Source of the DNA: Saccharolobus solfataricus
GTDB lineage: Archaea > Thermoproteota > Thermoprotei_A > Sulfolobales > Sulfolobaceae
DNA: 32,000 nucleotides
Assembly (NCBI RefSeq): GCF_900079115.1
Contig: NZ_LT549890.1
Location: 1,140,001-1,172,000, forward strand
Reading direction: 5' to 3'
The notes below the pieces were generated by a model. That model was not told the DNA's origin. It saw nothing but the letters and a program-made list of their open reading frames with translations, and ran no database searches. This document shows positions 1 to 13,864 of the stretch, piece by piece; the first letter of the stretch is position 1; the number at the start of each line of letters is the position of its first letter. Both the position numbers and the translations under genes were made by a program.

Positions 1-548
1 ATCAATTTAGATATTTTATCAGACTTGATCCTCCTAGGAAAATCAAAATATCCATTTTTATAAGCTAAAATTAAAGTTTTGAGTTCATATGGAGTAAGTT
101 CATCCTCAGTTATATCTAATTCATGAAAACTAATAAACTCTACATTCCCTTTTGACTTAAGCTTCTCTCTCAGTTCATTAACGTAACTTTCATATAATAA
201 AACTCGCCAATATTCCTTTCCATCATACTTAAATCCATCTAAGATTATTCCATCTACGGAGTTTATATTATCCATCACACTATTTTTGTATCTCTTTCTG
301 AAATCAAACAGTATTTTCTTATTATCTGTTGTAAGTGAAACTAATGAGTACCCTATGAAACTATTATTTCTTTTTATCTTATTTATTAACTCCTTGTATT
401 TTTTATCCACAACAATTAGAGACCTAATAAAGTTCCTCTCAGTGTCTACGGAAAACCTTAAAGTTTTCACAACGTATTTACCAACTAGATTAGTCCAACA
501 ATTCTCATGTTCTACGGAAAACGTAATCTCCAATAACCTATCACTCAT
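1..548 (-). CDS. HTH_10 (bacterio-opsin-activator-like) transcriptional regulator; 3' end lies outside the window
   Basis: My translation of the minus strand from ATG at 548-546 stays open to position 1 (MSDRLLEITFSVEHENCW...). It ends ...ELTPYELKTLILAYKNGYFDFPRRIKSDKISKL, typical of the HTH_10 domain. It is absent from the ORF track because it runs off the window edge. Divergent from the adh gene. Confidence 0.55.
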   Translation of the reverse strand, partial: MSDRLLEITFSVEHENCWTNLVGKYVVKTLRFSVDTERNFIRSLIVVDKKYKELINKIKRNNSFIGYSLVSLTTDNKKILFDFRKRYKNSVMDNINSVDGIILDGFKYDGKEYWRVLLYESYVNELREKLKSKGNVEFISFHELDITEDELTPYELKTLILAYKNGYFDFPRRIKSDKISKL

Positions 549-7239: not shown

Positions 7240-7293
7240 TTCTCACACTCTCCTTATTTTCATTTCTCTTCTACGACATTAAAAAATCTACTC

Positions 7294-7303
7294 AAACAAG
7301 TTT
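7294..7303. promoter_or_regulatory. Candidate operator core AAACAAGTTT in the divergent dioxygenase/DUF336 intergenic region
   Basis: Lies 39 nt before the ATG at 7343 (plus-strand gene) and 54 nt from the minus-strand ATG at 7239. Confidence 0.45.
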
Positions 7304-7342
7304 TATGTATGGCTTAATTCCACCTTTACTTAAACAGCATTT

Positions 7343-7762: not shown

Positions 7763-7874
7763 TTTTGTAAAATATTAGATAAACTATTTGATGAAGATAT
7801 AAAATGTACAAGAATGGTTTAAACTTTATCTTCCTTTTTTTAAATATAGACTTTTAAGTTCAAAATCTCCATGC

Positions 7875-7889
7875 ATCAAACTTGTTAGA
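7875..7889. promoter_or_regulatory. Candidate operator box ATCAAACTTGTTAGA followed by a TATA-like CTTAATATAG (7895-7904)
   Basis: Identical 15-mer at 10107-10121. Shared upstream TTCAAAATCT (7859-7868 vs 10077-10086). Core ends 40 nt before the ATG at 7928. Confidence 0.5.
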
Positions 7890-7927
7890 TTAAGCTTAAT
7901 ATAGCTTTCAACGGTTCATGAATGTAG

Positions 7928-9142
<1,215 letters not shown>

Positions 9143-9167: not shown

Positions 9168-9180
9168 TCGAACATGTTTA
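9168..9180. promoter_or_regulatory. Degenerate operator box TCGAACATGTTTA upstream of the alpha N-terminal-half gene
   Basis: Core GAACATGTTT at 9170-9179 ends 38 nt before the ATG at 9218. Same variant core as at 735. Confidence 0.4.
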
Positions 9181-9217
9181 AGAATTATTTTTAAATGAGG
9201 ATTATACATGTTTACTT

Positions 9218-10024
9218 ATGAAACCAGTTCCTGTAGAGCCTAGACTACCATCAAGAGACGAGTATTATGATTTAGCGAACAAGTTAGAGTGGACGCCAAA
9301 ATATGTAAAAGAAGAAGAGCTATTTCCGGTAGATATGAGTGGAATACCGAATTTACCAATAGATGTATGGACTGAGCTATATGATGCCCCCTATAAGGTG
9401 ACATATAGGGAGTATGTAAAGAATCAAAAGGAGAAGGATCAAAGACTTTTCTCTGTAAGAGAGGCTGGAGTAAGGGCAGAGCTAGTAAAGAAATTAGATA
9501 AGACTTATCATCAAGGTTCCTTCTGTTTCCACATAACTGCAGTTCCTATACCAGAATATACTGCGGCTATAGCTGAAGCAAGAATGGCAAGGTTTGGGAA
9601 AGCTGGTGAATGGAGAAACTTATCCACATTTGGTTCTATGGATGAGGTAAGGCATGCGCAATTGCAAATCCTACTGTCTCATGATAATATACAAGCTAGT
9701 CCTAAGTTCGCTTTCGCGCATAAGATGTTCTGGGTTGACGGCTGGTTACCAATAGCTGCTAGATCGTTCTTTGACGATACTATAACTGGGACTAATGCAA
9801 TAGAATTTGCTTTATTAACGACCTTTGCATTTGAGACTGGATTTACTAATTTACAATTTGTAGCATATGCCGCTATGGCAAATAAAACTAATGACTTCGT
9901 GTTCTCCTCAGCAACTCAAAGTATACAAACTGATGAGGCTAGGCATGCGCAAATAGGGCACCCAGTTCTAAAGGCTTTTGTTGACGTAACAAAGGTAAAT
10001 GAAGAGATGGAAAAGAAAATTTAA
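9218..10024 (+). CDS. Multicomponent diiron monooxygenase alpha subunit, N-terminal half carrying the diiron ligands
   Basis: 268 aa with both EXXH motifs (MDEVRHAQL and TDEARHAQI) plus FAFETGFTN. Ends about 20 aa after the second motif. Confidence 0.85.
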   Translation: MKPVPVEPRLPSRDEYYDLANKLEWTPKYVKEEELFPVDMSGIPNLPIDVWTELYDAPYKVTYREYVKNQKEKDQRLFSVREAGVRAELVKKLDKTYHQGSFCFHITAVPIPEYTAAIAEARMARFGKAGEWRNLSTFGSMDEVRHAQLQILLSHDNIQASPKFAFAHKMFWVDGWLPIAARSFFDDTITGTNAIEFALLTTFAFETGFTNLQFVAYAAMANKTNDFVFSSATQSIQTDEARHAQIGHPVLKAFVDVTKVNEEMEKKI

Positions 10025-10106
10025 TTTGTTTTTTTAAAATTTTTCCCTATTTATACTTTACTCTTCTTAGTAAGAATTCAAAATCTATAAACTGATAAAC
10101 ACATCT

Positions 10107-10121
10107 ATCAAACTTGTTAGA
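10107..10121. promoter_or_regulatory. Candidate operator box ATCAAACTTGTTAGA plus A/T-rich TATA-like stretch, inside the spacer that splits the alpha subunit
   Basis: 15/15 identical to 7875-7889. Core ends 38 nt before the ATG at 10158. Confidence 0.5.
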
Positions 10122-10157
10122 ACAATTCTTAAAAAGTATAAAAAAGATTATACGACG

Positions 10158-11090
10158 ATGAGTAGAGAAGGAAGTTTAGGCCAAACTAAAGGAGAAGTCA
10201 AGCAAGTATTATCAAACATTTCGGAGGGATTAATGAAAAATTATAGAAATACTGTTGAATTTGCTGCTAGGATGAGAGAAAAAGGCCCGGCATATAAAGA
10301 GGCAGGAGAATATTTGGTAGCGAAAGGATTCTGGCTCTCCGTTAGGCTAATAGGAGCCTTAACCGGAGTTTCAATGGATTACCTCACTCCTCTAGACGCT
10401 AGAATAATGTCATACAAGGAGTTTATGACAGAATGGGTAGGTGCGCAGTTAAAGAGATTATTAGAAGATTATGGAATAAGATTACCTTGGTATTGGAAAT
10501 GGTTTGAGTTAGAGTTAGACCATTGGCATCATGACTTTATTATAGGATTATATACGTGGAGAAGGACTCTAAATGTTTCATTTAGAGGTCCTACGCCTGA
10601 TGAGAGAAAATGGTTAAACGAGAAATATCCACATTGGGAGATGTTTTTCGGTAGAGTTTGGGACTTGTATATAAAGAAGATTATTGATGGCCAAATACCG
10701 TTACCATTAACTGCAGTACATTTATGTGCGGTTTGTCAAGTACCGATACAAGCTCCAGCTAATGGAAAGTACTTGAGGATCTACTTAAAAGAGTATAAGG
10801 GAAAAATGTATACGTTTGATAGTCCCGCTTGCTTATGGATATTTGAACAAGAGCCAGAAAGATATGCTGGGAGAAGGACTTACACACAAAGAGTTCTTGA
10901 GGGTATGATACAGTTTACTGAAGAGGCATACAAGGATCCGAAGAGGCTACTAGATGAGGTGATATGGAATATGGGACAAACAGAGGAAGGGGAAGCTGGT
11001 CTAGACCCTACTGACGGTGCATATGCATTATTATATAGAGAGAAAGATCCAGATTTCTTTAATAGAATAAAGAAGTATACGGAGGCGTAA
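10158..11090 (+). CDS. Multicomponent diiron monooxygenase alpha subunit, C-terminal half
   Basis: 310 aa. WLSVRLIGALTGVSMDYLTPLDARIMSYKEFMTEWV, PWYWKWF, HHDF and TPDERKWLNEKYPHW resemble the region after the second EXXH in TouA/TmoA as I recall those sequences. Confidence 0.8.
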   Translation: MSREGSLGQTKGEVKQVLSNISEGLMKNYRNTVEFAARMREKGPAYKEAGEYLVAKGFWLSVRLIGALTGVSMDYLTPLDARIMSYKEFMTEWVGAQLKRLLEDYGIRLPWYWKWFELELDHWHHDFIIGLYTWRRTLNVSFRGPTPDERKWLNEKYPHWEMFFGRVWDLYIKKIIDGQIPLPLTAVHLCAVCQVPIQAPANGKYLRIYLKEYKGKMYTFDSPACLWIFEQEPERYAGRRTYTQRVLEGMIQFTEEAYKDPKRLLDEVIWNMGQTEEGEAGLDPTDGAYALLYREKDPDFFNRIKKYTEA

Positions 11091-11095
11091 AACAA

Positions 11096-11530
11096 ATGAG
11101 TATAGAAGCGGTACCCATAGTGTTTGTTCCAGAAGAAGGTACAGTATGGTTACCAGCTGTGCTTCCAACAAACATTGCAGTAAAAGAAGCTGTTGAAATG
11201 TTAAAGAGTTTAACAGTCAATGTGTTAGTATGGGAAAAGAAAGGGAAAGAGTTAAGGTTAGTAAATTACTTTACTGGTCAAGTCTTAGACCCTAATGCCA
11301 AAGTTAGAGACGTAATAAAGCCATATGACGTTTTCTGGTTAATCTGGTGGCCTCCTAGAGAAGAGTTCTGGAAGCCAGAAAATCAGAATGATGAAATATT
11401 TAGGATTATAAAGGAGACCGAAGATGCAGTAAAGTCAGCCCCAAGATCTCCTTCAGTACTATTTGCAGATGAGATTGAGAAATATAGTATCGTTAGAAGA
11501 TTGGAAAGGGAGGGTAAACTAAGAGCGTGA
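11096..11530 (+). CDS. Small monooxygenase-operon protein, possibly a TmoB/gamma-like subunit
   Basis: 144 aa. Occupies the position that tmoB holds in TMO-type operons and starts 5 nt after the preceding stop. No motif I can name. Confidence 0.4.
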   Translation: MSIEAVPIVFVPEEGTVWLPAVLPTNIAVKEAVEMLKSLTVNVLVWEKKGKELRLVNYFTGQVLDPNAKVRDVIKPYDVFWLIWWPPREEFWKPENQNDEIFRIIKETEDAVKSAPRSPSVLFADEIEKYSIVRRLEREGKLRA

Positions 11531-11534
11531 GATT

Positions 11535-11939
11535 ATGAATTACCCTGGAGAATTTCATAAATTACTAACTCTAGACGACATTTATGAAGGAGAGGCTAAG
11601 CTAGTAGAGGTTAATAGATATGAAATTCTAGTAGTAAATATAAAGGGAGAGATTAAGGCATATTATGCTAGATGTGCCCATGCATTAGGTTTAATAGAAT
11701 CAAACTCTTTCGATGGTGAGGAGAAAATAATATGCCCAGTACATCTATGGGAGTATAACGCGAGGACAGGCGAAAGTATAAATCCAGTTGGTAGTTCTCT
11801 CTTTCCTTTAGATGTGAAGGTTGAAGGTAGTGATATTTTTGTTAAAGTTCCATCTGTTCCCATATCCGAATTCAAGGTTAAATGGTTTGGTATGTATAGG
11901 CAAAGGGGTGTGATAAATGAGTTTGGAGTTAACTCTTGA
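11535..11939 (+). CDS. Rieske-type [2Fe-2S] ferredoxin component
   Basis: 134 aa with CAH...17 residues...CPVH (CxH/CxxH Rieske ligands). Confidence 0.85.
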   Translation: MNYPGEFHKLLTLDDIYEGEAKLVEVNRYEILVVNIKGEIKAYYARCAHALGLIESNSFDGEEKIICPVHLWEYNARTGESINPVGSSLFPLDVKVEGSDIFVKVPSVPISEFKVKWFGMYRQRGVINEFGVNS

Positions 11940-12264
11940 AACAATTTTAGATAAATATCAAATAATGGATTTAAGTAAATTACCACAAAATATGGTAGGG
12001 CCAGTGCTCATGAAAGACGAGTTCAGCTATGCTGTAGTTGAGGCTTTAGCGCGCGATAATCCAAATACTTTCAAAGGAGTTCTTGATAGGGGTTCTTACA
12101 TAAGAGTAGTGGGTGAAAGGGAACTTATCTTAAACAAGACTACGCTAGAGGAAGTGATAGGTATGGACGTTAGATTTCCTGGAGAGGTTGAGGTAAGGAT
12201 GAGCGCATTTGCAGGAAAGATAATTGTTAGAGGGGATTATATAAAATGGCATTTAGACTTGTGA
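11917..12264 (+). CDS. Monooxygenase effector/coupling protein (MmoB/DmpM family); alternative start ATG 11965
   Basis: About 100 aa, cofactor-less. VGPVLMKDEFSYAVVEALARDNP...RMSAFAGKIIV fits the family pattern. The longest ORF overlaps the Rieske gene by 23 nt. Confidence 0.7.
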   Translation: MSLELTLETILDKYQIMDLSKLPQNMVGPVLMKDEFSYAVVEALARDNPNTFKGVLDRGSYIRVVGERELILNKTTLEEVIGMDVRFPGEVEVRMSAFAGKIIVRGDYIKWHLDL

Positions 12265-12275
12265 GGTGAAAGGAT

Positions 12276-13406
12276 ATGACTAGATTAGAGGATTTGGAAT
12301 GGTATAAAAGGTATAAACAAATGTTCGGAGCATTCAAAAGCGGTCCAGAAGGGGATCCGTTTTTCAGAGATTATGAGTATAGGGGATACAAGAAAGTTTG
12401 GTCAACGTGGCCAATGTTGGAGAAAAAGTTAGGAAGAAAAAAACCATCAGAATACCAAGTAGTTACTTATGCATTATCATACTGGGCCGATCCAAGATCC
12501 CCTACTTATATCTACGATAAAGGGCCATTTGAACTAGGGACAGAACACATAACCCAAAAATGGTATAAACACTTTAGAGACAACTCACCGTTCATTAAAC
12601 CATTATTCGAAAGAGGTGAATGGCATGATTATGAAGACCCATACAAATTGACATATTGGACTTATAACTCCATGGCGGACGATAATGAAACTTTCTTAGA
12701 TAAGATTTACGAGGAGATTGTAAATACTAAATATGATTGGAACCTAAATGAAGAGGTACTGGAATTATACAAGAACGTTTATGACCCATTAAGATACGTA
12801 TTCCATATTATGCAAATGGAGTCAATGTATCTAGCTACTATGGCTCCTACAAGTTCTATAGCTAACGTATTTATTTTCATGGGAATGGACCATTTAAGGA
12901 GAGTCCAAAGAATTTCACAAAGGGTAAAGATGCTCGATATTGTATATCCAAGTCTAGGATTTGGAAAGGAAACAAGGAAGGTATTTGAGGAGAGTCCAAT
13001 ATTTCAGCCAACAAGAGAAGTATTGGAGAAAATGTTAGTTACGTATGATGTAGGAGAAGCCTTAGTAGCGTTTAACTTAGCAGTCAAATTCGTATTAGAT
13101 GAACTGATACTCCAACATCTAACTCAACCATTCAGTAAGTTAGGAGACGAGATGATAAAGCACATTCACTTATCGTTCTATAACGATACGTTAAGACATA
13201 GACATCAAGCTCAAGAGCTGTTCAAATACGCATTCAGTAAGGAGCCAAGTTTAAAGGATGTTATTAAACCTTGGGTGAAAGATTGGCAAGAGATGGGATT
13301 TAAGGCTACAGAAGGGTTTAGAGATGTGCTTAAAGGAGAATATGATAATGCTATAAGGCAGATTAGGAAGGCTCATAGTGAATATCTTGGAGGAATAGGA
13401 CTATGA
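12276..13406 (+). CDS. Multicomponent monooxygenase beta subunit
   Basis: 376 aa, ferritin-like helical protein without EXXH ligands, at the tmoE/touE position of the operon. Confidence 0.7.
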   Translation: MTRLEDLEWYKRYKQMFGAFKSGPEGDPFFRDYEYRGYKKVWSTWPMLEKKLGRKKPSEYQVVTYALSYWADPRSPTYIYDKGPFELGTEHITQKWYKHFRDNSPFIKPLFERGEWHDYEDPYKLTYWTYNSMADDNETFLDKIYEEIVNTKYDWNLNEEVLELYKNVYDPLRYVFHIMQMESMYLATMAPTSSIANVFIFMGMDHLRRVQRISQRVKMLDIVYPSLGFGKETRKVFEESPIFQPTREVLEKMLVTYDVGEALVAFNLAVKFVLDELILQHLTQPFSKLGDEMIKHIHLSFYNDTLRHRHQAQELFKYAFSKEPSLKDVIKPWVKDWQEMGFKATEGFRDVLKGEYDNAIRQIRKAHSEYLGGIGL

Positions 13407-13864
13407 AGGAGAAGGTTGTAGAAATTTTGAGGCAAATTTACGATCCAGAAATTCCAATAAATATATATGACTTAGGACTAGTAAGAGAGATAAGAATTGA
13501 AGGCAAAAGAATTTTTGTTAGATTGATTTTCACTGCAAATAAGGGATGTACGCTGGCAGATCTTGTAGCAGTTCAAGTTAAGTATAAACTAATGAAGGTA
13601 TTTCCAGACTATAACGTGGAGGTCAAGAGTGATTTCAATGAAGAATGGAATATAGGCTATGCAACAGAAACGGGCAGGCTGATGTTAGAGGAAATATATG
13701 GAAAGGATGCAGTGGAGGTATTAGTTAATAAGACCAAAATAGAGGAATTAGTATCAACAAATAAAGTCAAGTTAGAGAATTTCGATCCACGTGAATATAT
13801 GAGAAAAGCAGTGGAGGAGAGATATAAAAAATTTAGAGAATGGTATGACAAACACAAAATATAG
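13403..13864 (+). CDS. DUF59 (MIP18/PaaD/SufT-like) metal-cluster assembly family protein; last codon and stop supplied by the IS
   Basis: 153 aa with IYDPEIPINIYDLGLV. Overlaps the beta gene by 4 nt. The IS110-type arm begins at 13860, so ...ata tag comes from the insertion. Confidence 0.7.
   Translation: MKEKVVEILRQIYDPEIPINIYDLGLVREIRIEGKRIFVRLIFTANKGCTLADLVAVQVKYKLMKVFPDYNVEVKSDFNEEWNIGYATETGRLMLEEIYGKDAVEVLVNKTKIEELVSTNKVKLENFDPREYMRKAVEERYKKFREWYDKHKI

Follow-up and report, generated by a model that had tools for sequence, protein, structure and literature searches.

Two genes for one alpha subunit in the aromatic diiron monooxygenase cluster of Saccharolobus solfataricus, and a probable promoter between them

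The region examined is a stretch of 32,000 nucleotides (nt) from Saccharolobus solfataricus (NCBI RefSeq assembly GCF_900079115.1, contig NZ_LT549890.1, positions 1,140,001 to 1,172,000 of the forward strand), hereafter called the window, and coordinates are those of the window unless a different sequence is named. It includes a gene cluster for a multicomponent diiron monooxygenase, in which the gene for the alpha subunit of the hydroxylase was found to be present as two open reading frames (ORFs) on the forward strand. The first, alphaN (9218 to 10024), encodes 268 amino acids (aa) and the second, alphaC (10158 to 11090), encodes 310 aa, in place of the single alpha polypeptide of ~500 aa that is a mark of group 2 bacterial monooxygenases. 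The two are in different frames and are separated by a spacer of 133 nt (10025 to 10157), exactly as claimed in a preliminary description of this DNA made from its letters alone. A reductase gene (7928 to 9142, forward strand) lies upstream of alphaN, and an operon that runs from orf144 through a FeS_assembly_P gene (11096 to 13864, forward strand) lies downstream of alphaC.

AlphaN matched the Pfam family Phenol_Hydrox over residues 25–256 (E 7.5e-67), and its alignments reached residues 5–254 of TouA, the alpha subunit of the bacterial enzyme ToMO (E 1e-68), and residues 5–257 of TmoA. All six diiron ligands (E113, E143, H146, E206, E240 and H243) are located in alphaN and correspond to E104, E134, H137, E197, E231 and H234 of TouA, giving the two E...EXXH motifs of the four-helix-bundle part, and the active-site threonine (T210) is also found here. 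The earlier statement that the first ORF carries all of the diiron ligand motifs was thus borne out, and its estimate that the stop codon falls ~20 residues after the second EXXH was close, the actual distance being 25 residues from H243. Residues 47–254 of alphaC matched TouA 251–462 (E 1e-46), with a YHS domain at residues 197–239, and jointly the two ORFs cover TouA 5–462. The tail of alphaN and the first part of the alphaC core hit the same few residues of the one-piece proteins (about TmoA 252–257). The two ORFs jointly supply one TouA/TmoA-type alpha subunit, encoded as two working genes, and the cut position is the surface loop just after helix F, which carries the second EXXH. A search of this genome matched no second alphaN-like gene, and the cluster is therefore without an intact alpha gene as a fallback.

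The first 46 residues of alphaC (10158 to 10295) have no counterpart in one-piece alpha subunits. HMMER alignments of alphaC to one-piece proteins began at residues 42 to 49, so that the extra N-terminal segment noted in the preliminary description is indeed present, though with a length of about 43–46 residues and not the ~38 given there. The extension was retained down to a 311-aa homologue with 49% identity, which aligned from residue 8, and dN/dS (the ratio of non-synonymous to synonymous substitution rates) for the first 46 codons was 0.025–0.117 in comparisons with congeners. In an AlphaFold2 model of alphaC computed from a 20-sequence alignment (predicted local distance difference test score, pLDDT, 77; predicted template modelling score 0.77), residues 11–40 form one long helix (pLDDT 82–85) that is followed by a short turn and a pairing helix at residues 44–76. 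The extension may help the two chains to dock. An origin of the extension by duplication of helix F was considered and found to be unsupported, an hhalign comparison with the alphaN profile detecting no homology (1% probability over 7 aligned columns).

The spacer begins with a T-rich stretch, TTTGTTTTTTTAAAATTTTT (10025 to 10044), directly after the alphaN stop codon, in which runs of seven (10029 to 10035) and five (10040 to 10044) T residues resemble an archaeal oligo-T terminator and may act as one. T-runs follow the alphaN stop codon in all Sulfolobaceae copies, including those in which alphaC does not follow. Closer to alphaC is a palindromic 14-bp dyad, TCAAACTTGTTAGA (10108 to 10121, −50 to −37 from the alphaC ATG; consensus TCnAACnnGTTnGA), hereafter the box, and a TATA-like sequence, TTAAAAAG (10129 to 10136, −29 to −22 from the ATG). 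A TATA element at such a distance is the geometry expected for leaderless or near-leaderless mRNA in Sulfolobus, and the position in the spacer would fit a transcript of that kind. The box and TATA have been kept across four congeners and one other genus, while the remainder of the spacer diverges and varies in length; the core of the box is invariant in the relatives designated G003, G007 and G001 and has one change in G024, and AATTCTTAAAAAGTATAAAAA at the TATA position is conserved in four same-genus genomes. The spacer RNA had no stable fold relative to shuffled sequences (z = −0.82) and no Rfam match above threshold, and a structured RNA, an intron or a known RNA family in the spacer was accordingly rejected. 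Promoter and terminator models of the bacterial type are uninformative for an archaeal host; they gave 7 promoter-like sites where 6.0 were expected, and no terminator hairpins.

Three minor features were also noted. A reverse-oriented TATA sequence (TTATAGATTTT) in the spacer could drive an antisense transcript into alphaN. A sub-threshold Rfam match to the C/D-box snoRNA-like family snoZ7 was located inside alphaC (10221 to 10300; 24.7 bits against a gathering threshold of 43, E 0.037) and is most likely due to chance. An AAAATCT element recurs directly upstream of the box in the promoters of the HbpS-like/dioxygenase genes (7279 to 7291), the reductase gene (7859 to 7868) and alphaC (10077 to 10086), and is retained in relatives; on the other strand of the divergent promoter, this element falls within the TATA-like stretch of the dioxygenase gene (GATTTTTTAA).

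The preliminary description had pointed to two sequences shared by the spacer and the promoter of the reductase gene. The 15-mer ATCAAACTTGTTAGA was found to be exact at both (7875 to 7889 and 10107 to 10121) and far above chance, with 4 matches in the search at up to two mismatches against 0.14 expected, a number reached in none of 100 shuffles. The 10-mer TTCAAAATCT is also exact at both (7859 to 7868 and 10077 to 10086) and is retained with small changes at both promoters in relatives, but it is not significant by itself (6 matches with up to one mismatch against 7.9 expected), and it is 6 nt away from the 15-mer at one of the two promoters but 20 nt away at the second. The reductase copy of the box (TCAAACTTGTTAGA, 7876 to 7889) ends 38 nt before the ATG at 7928 and the spacer copy 36 nt before the alphaC ATG, so that the promoter-like module described in the spacer, with box and TATA at the same distance from the start codon, is present. 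A 20-mer is 90% identical between the two promoters, and outside the 14-bp box the flanks are unlike.

Further copies were identified across the cluster. The perfect consensus, TCnAACnnGTTnGA, occurs at 5 sites in the 3.03-Mb genome against ~1 expected, and 3 of these are within the 32-kb window. A copy with one mismatch, TCGAACATGTTTAA (9168 to 9181, forward strand), is 36 nt before the alphaN ATG and is followed by TATA-like TTTTTAAA at 9188 to 9195; it is identical in G003, G007 and G001, and G024 has a perfect box at the same place. Another one-mismatch copy, TCAAACAAGTTTTA (7292 to 7305), is in a divergent promoter region, 37 nt before the ATG of the HbpS-like gene (7343) and 52 nt from the ATG of a dioxygenase gene on the minus strand (7239). 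A further copy, TCGAACATGTTAGA (733 to 746), with a TATA-like stretch, has been separated from an alcohol dehydrogenase (ADH) gene (1862 to 2950) by an insertion element that carries a DDE_3/IS630-type transposase ORF (767 to 1780), and in G003, G007 and G001 the orthologous ADH promoters are free of the insertion and have the box followed by 37 nt and the ATG. The orthologous promoters of relatives retain the box at the ADH, HbpS-like, reductase, alphaN and alphaC genes, and five promoters share one geometry, with the box end 36–38 nt and the TATA 22–30 nt before the ATG. Counting the orthologous promoters in relatives, the box is thus 36–38 nt before at least four cluster start codons other than that of alphaC. 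The sequences indicate that the box belongs to the whole cluster as one regulon-type set, and because it is also at other cluster promoters the spacer promoter is not a copy of the reductase promoter.

The palindromic form of the box makes it a probable binding site of a dimeric regulator. A gene for a regulator of the HTH_10 (Bat-type) family (Pfam HTH_10, E 1.5e-09) was found at the edge of the window (3 to 548, minus strand), and the full gene, read from the genome, spans −138 to 548 in window coordinates and encodes 228 aa. An ortholog adjoins the cluster in all of the box-bearing genomes, with 90–92% identity in three congeners, 62% in G024, where it is divergent from alphaN, and 53% in Acidianus manzaensis. 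The genome designated G004 and Pyrobaculum arsenaticum were found to have no box at up to one mismatch, and G004 includes only HTH_10 paralogs of 32–34% identity. This adjacent HTH_10 protein is the best candidate for the protein that would bind the box.

S. solfataricus has an aromatic (phenol/toluene) diiron monooxygenase cluster of the Sso1225–Sso1234 type, and this is the cluster seen here; the genes of strain P2 have the same set, order and split, and the locus in the window is either identical to that of P2 or represents a strain variant. P2 has been reported to grow on phenol with this cluster, the genes of which are phenol-induced (PMC7820114). Expression of the two halves was examined using published RNA-seq data for P2, given as whole-gene mean reads per kilobase per million (RPKM; Wolf et al. 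2021, PMC7820114, supplementary table). On glucose and phenol, respectively, the values were 59 and 574 for Sso1225 (reductase), 369 and 26848 for Sso1227 (alphaN), 9.2 and 3515 for Sso1228 (alphaC) and 17.6 and 2868 for the next gene, Sso1229, corresponding to induction by phenol of 9.7-fold for Sso1225, 73-fold for Sso1227 and 384-fold for Sso1228 (PMC7820114). AlphaN mRNA is far above that of both neighbouring genes and exceeds alphaC mRNA 40-fold on glucose and 7.6-fold on phenol, whereas alphaC tracks the genes that follow it. The alphaC/alphaN ratio rises from 2.5% on glucose to 13% on phenol, the induction ratios differing 5-fold, and constant read-through therefore cannot explain the pattern. 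The gap in abundance between the mRNAs for two halves of one subunit is striking, and no comment on it was found in the text of PMC7820114 that was searched. As the box lies upstream of the transcription factor B recognition element (BRE)/TATA and the genes are induced by phenol, an activator is favoured, and the box is probably the site of a phenol-responsive one.

To examine conservation, 41 related genomes were searched for alphaN and alphaC, as were the protein databases. Matches to alphaN were found in 7 of the 41 genomes, including the one described here; five others are intact and one (G021) has only a decayed remnant. In each of the five intact relatives the alphaN frame is open over 273–289 aa, has the same end point and is accompanied by an alphaC of ~310 aa. 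The protein databases added split alphaN proteins of 263–276 aa from A. manzaensis, Acidianus brierleyi, Metallosphaera sp. J1, P. arsenaticum and metagenomes, and split alphaC proteins of 304–312 aa, the extension still being present, down to 49% identity. No close relative with a one-piece alpha gene differing only by the absence of the spacer was found in the 41 genomes or the protein databases. The comparison with alpha genes of related Sulfolobales that had been proposed as a check shows the split to be conserved, in five relatives and in Acidianus and Metallosphaera, and the contiguous gene in close relatives that had been named as contrary evidence did not appear among the 41 genomes. 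Comparison with congeners gave dN/dS of 0.055–0.080 for alphaN and 0.041–0.067 for alphaC, indicating strong purifying selection.

The remnant in G021, which belongs to a different genus of the family, is at 7763 to 8461 of its locus (L015), has three stop codons and directly precedes a fragment of the FeS_assembly_P gene, the remainder of the operon having been deleted.

A maximum-likelihood tree was built from the C-halves together with the corresponding C-terminal regions of 17 one-piece proteins. In it, all 13 split sequences grouped as one clade (100/100 support) nested in the TmoA/TouA-like group, though the columns of the extension contribute to defining this clade. The grouping of the split C-halves in one clade is consistent with a single fission, and the data fit a split that is a single, old and selected event common to Sulfolobales, Pyrobaculum and uncultured relatives.

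Two truncated alpha-like proteins were also found in one complete bacterial genome, that of Pseudonocardia benzenivorans (7.1-Mb contig; P0024 and P0099, 293 and 319 aa, 38–45% identity). These could be independent fissions, pseudogenes or assembly frameshifts.

The arrangement of the halves is not the same in all lineages. In G004 (79% identity), alphaN is on the strand opposite to alphaC, the two being divergent across 393 nt. A gene for a 361-aa zinc alcohol dehydrogenase is located between the halves in P. arsenaticum, with the same layout on metagenome contig L021, and in A. manzaensis the orf144–FeS_assembly_P operon is followed, ~3 kb downstream, by a reductase-alphaN pair, in a locus that ends within orf144, with alphaC itself outside the sequence examined. 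The halves are adjacent in L020, with a spacer of 74 nt, and in L022, with a spacer of 23 nt. Judged from these layouts, the halves behave as independent genes. Together with the conserved spacer elements, the T-runs and the RPKM values, the rearrangements indicate that the halves are very probably transcribed separately, as the preliminary description had proposed, and the RPKM values give indirect support for a separate inducible start in the spacer.

In P. arsenaticum (CP000660.1; locus L016, 7861 to 7913), an inverted repeat extends across the ADH stop codon and the AT-rich gap before alphaC, with a MarR-like gene nearby. The repeat is perfect over 24 nt (TTACTAAATTTTAAGAAAAAAATC / GATTTTTTTCTTAAAATTTAGTAA), has a loop of 5 nt, and could either form the hairpin of a terminator or serve another regulator as its operator.

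It is very likely that the alpha gene underwent one ancient fission, that its halves are now separate genes and transcription units, and that the promoter in the spacer is a later, lineage-specific addition. The fission would have occurred in the loop after helix F, leaving an N-half that supplies the diiron four-helix bundle and a C-half that supplies the remaining helices and the YHS domain and that also gained the conserved N-terminal helix of ~45 residues. The two separately made polypeptides would presumably assemble after translation with the beta and small subunits to form the hydroxylase. The alphaN unit would have its own box and TATA (9168 to 9195) and end at the oligo-T runs (10025 to 10044), and the box and TATA of the spacer (10108 to 10136) would start a near-leaderless transcript of alphaC and the downstream genes. 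With the box placed just upstream of the BRE/TATA in at least five cluster promoters, a phenol-responsive activator, for which the HTH_10 protein is the candidate, may control the set. The spacer promoter would then have been added to an older split and not have caused it.

Several points weigh against this explanation. Assembly of the two polypeptides is inferred, and no demonstration of it was found in the literature consulted. The separate starts and ends are read from the sequence and from RPKM values that are those of whole genes in strain P2, with one phenol replicate ~5 times the others, and unequal stability of the mRNAs could contribute to the step between alphaN and alphaC. The sign of regulation through the box and the identity of its binder are argued from position and from co-occurrence in a few related genomes. 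In addition, the 23-nt spacer of the distant relative L022 contains a Shine-Dalgarno-like GGTGG, and co-transcription of the halves is therefore workable.

Decay of the alpha gene through a nonsense or frameshift mutation, leaving a cluster that does not work as a monooxygenase, would account for the presence of two ORFs in different frames in place of the single gene of ~500 codons found in bacteria, and real decay is seen in relatives, namely the alphaN remnant with stops in G021 and a beta gene that is interrupted in G001. However, the break point is identical down to 49–59% identity, dN/dS is 0.04–0.08 in both halves with the extension also under selection, both genes are strongly phenol-induced in P2, which is reported to grow on phenol, and a search of the genome gave no further alpha gene. 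A pseudogene is thus extremely unlikely, and the earlier view that the spacer is not a simple nonsense or frameshift lesion holds, given the same break in relatives and the purifying selection. Rejoining of the two ORFs, whether via an mRNA intron, programmed frameshifting or readthrough, or protein splicing, could be suspected because the last residues of alphaN and the first of the alphaC core align to the same positions, about TmoA 252–257, and archaeal mRNA introns are established for cbf5. But the layouts in which the halves are on opposite strands (G004), have an ADH gene between them (P. arsenaticum) or are permuted (A. manzaensis) exclude rejoining by splicing or recoding, and the extension, which would be lost in such a splice, is itself conserved and subject to purifying selection. 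The spacer RNA is without a stable fold (z = −0.82) or an Rfam match above threshold, there is no intein-like sequence, and the ORFs are fully explained by the TouA alignment plus the 46-residue helix, making rejoining hardly credible.

Two further alternatives concern the spacer promoter. If the two genes were co-transcribed from the alphaN promoter, as their adjacency on the same strand and the 23-nt, GGTGG-containing spacer of L022 would suggest, the spacer box would be either regulatory, for example as a roadblock or attenuator, without promoter function, or non-functional. This is unlikely, as the spacing of the box and TATA from the ATG matches that of four other cluster promoters, runs of T7 and T5 directly follow the alphaN stop codon, alphaC-led operons with no alphaN upstream exist in G004 and A. 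manzaensis, and the level of alphaC relative to alphaN changes between glucose and phenol (2.5% and 13%), with the 5-fold difference in induction. The preliminary description had instead concluded that a promoter module was inserted or duplicated into the gene, and copying of the reductase promoter into a once-continuous alpha gene, splitting it, would explain the identical 15-mer, the 90% identical 20-mer and the presence of TTCAAAATCT at both promoters. That conclusion is not supported: the flanks beyond the box differ, as does the spacing of the 10-mer, and the box is also at the ADH, HbpS-like and alphaN promoters. Moreover, the split and the alphaC extension occur without the box in G004, P. 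arsenaticum, L020 and L022, and all split forms make up one clade, indicating that the fission is earlier than, or independent of, the promoter. An origin of the split by insertion of a promoter is thus very unlikely.

In addition to the one ancient fission with separately transcribed halves, it is conceivable, though rather doubtful, that alphaN also acts alone or with a different partner as a stand-alone four-helix-bundle diiron protein, and that the split is adaptive rather than neutral. Possible roles would be the handling of oxygen or peroxide, a sensory function, or a reserve built up ahead of the induction of the C-half. AlphaN would have its own promoter and terminator, its mRNA is 8–40 times that of the C-half and is considerable even on glucose (369 against 9 RPKM), and it is physically unlinked from alphaC in three lineages and paired with the reductase gene in A. 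manzaensis.

The split itself was already known. The annotation of P2 names Sso1227 as 'TmoA amino end fragment' and Sso1228 as 'carboxy end fragment' (PMC7820114), and strains of Sulfolobus islandicus have been described with 'TmoA alpha beta, B, C, D, E', so that the earlier report of a split S. solfataricus alpha subunit mentioned in the preliminary description does exist. For the P2 cluster, PMC7820114 and PMC3283564 cite Izzo et al. 2005 and Notomista et al. 2003, and P. arsenaticum has likewise been noted to possess the enzyme. A search for explicit accounts of the split under 'SsoMO' or Sulfolobus 'soluble di-iron monooxygenase' returned nothing useful. The literature found, in which the 2003 and 2005 papers are represented by the citations of them, includes no description of the spacer promoter, of the shared box and candidate regulator, of the unequal mRNAs of the halves or of the rearranged archaeal layouts.

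Among characterised enzymes, the closest likeness is to toluene/o-xylene monooxygenase (ToMO, TouA-F of Pseudomonas sp. OX1; PDB 1T0Q) and toluene 4-monooxygenase (T4MO, TmoA-F of P. mendocina KR1; PDB 3DHG), and all diiron ligands and the active-site threonine are present. ToMO and T4MO belong to the four-component group 2 of bacterial multicomponent monooxygenases, and the cluster shares with them a beta subunit, a Rieske ferredoxin and an MmoB/DmpM effector, the split clade being nested inside the group. It differs from both in that alpha is made as two polypeptides, with an extra N-terminal helix of ~45 residues in the C-half, and in having a Pyr_redox_2/TodA-type reductase, additional FeS_assembly_P and HbpS-like genes, and archaeal promoters. 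Reductases of the TmoF/TouF type have a plant-type [2Fe-2S] domain and a flavin domain, whereas the reductase here is composed of Pyr_redox_2 and Reductase_C. Subunit A of archaeal RNA polymerase, split into A' and A'', is an established case of gene fission in a multidomain protein, and the two systems are alike in that a large subunit has been cut at a surface loop into separately translated parts that assemble, the split having become fixed in a lineage. However, RpoA' and RpoA'' are adjacent and co-transcribed, whereas the monooxygenase halves appear to be separately promoted and in some lineages are unlinked.

The split TmoA of S. solfataricus being known, its detection here is of limited value as a discovery. 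The helix F loop does appear as a natural, tolerated cut site, which together with the added helix could guide the engineering of split diiron monooxygenases. At least five box-plus-TATA promoters with a neighbouring HTH_10 candidate would make up a compact and testable phenol-inducible archaeal regulon, and the cluster promoters might serve as inducible elements in genetic work on Sulfolobales.

The remaining genes of the cluster are in the same order in relatives. The product of the upstream gene is a ferredoxin-NAD(+) reductase of the Pyr_redox_2/Reductase_C (TodA-like) type by Pfam. Downstream of alphaC, all on the forward strand, orf144 (11096 to 11530) has no Pfam match but is named TmoB in the P2 annotation and is in the place expected for it, and it is followed by genes for a Rieske ferredoxin (11535 to 11939; Rieske, E 2.4e-11), an MmoB/DmpM effector (11917 to 12264; MmoB_DmpM, E 5.7e-23), the beta subunit (12276 to 13406; Phenol_Hydrox, E 8.1e-64) and, by Pfam, an FeS_assembly_P protein (13403 to 13864). 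In G001 (locus L013, 5308 to 6585), an inserted segment of ~1.28 kb, with an ORF of 312 aa, disrupts the beta gene, and the monooxygenase of this congener is therefore probably inactive. For strain 98/2, an insertion element has been reported within the operon for phenol hydroxylase (PMC3512248).

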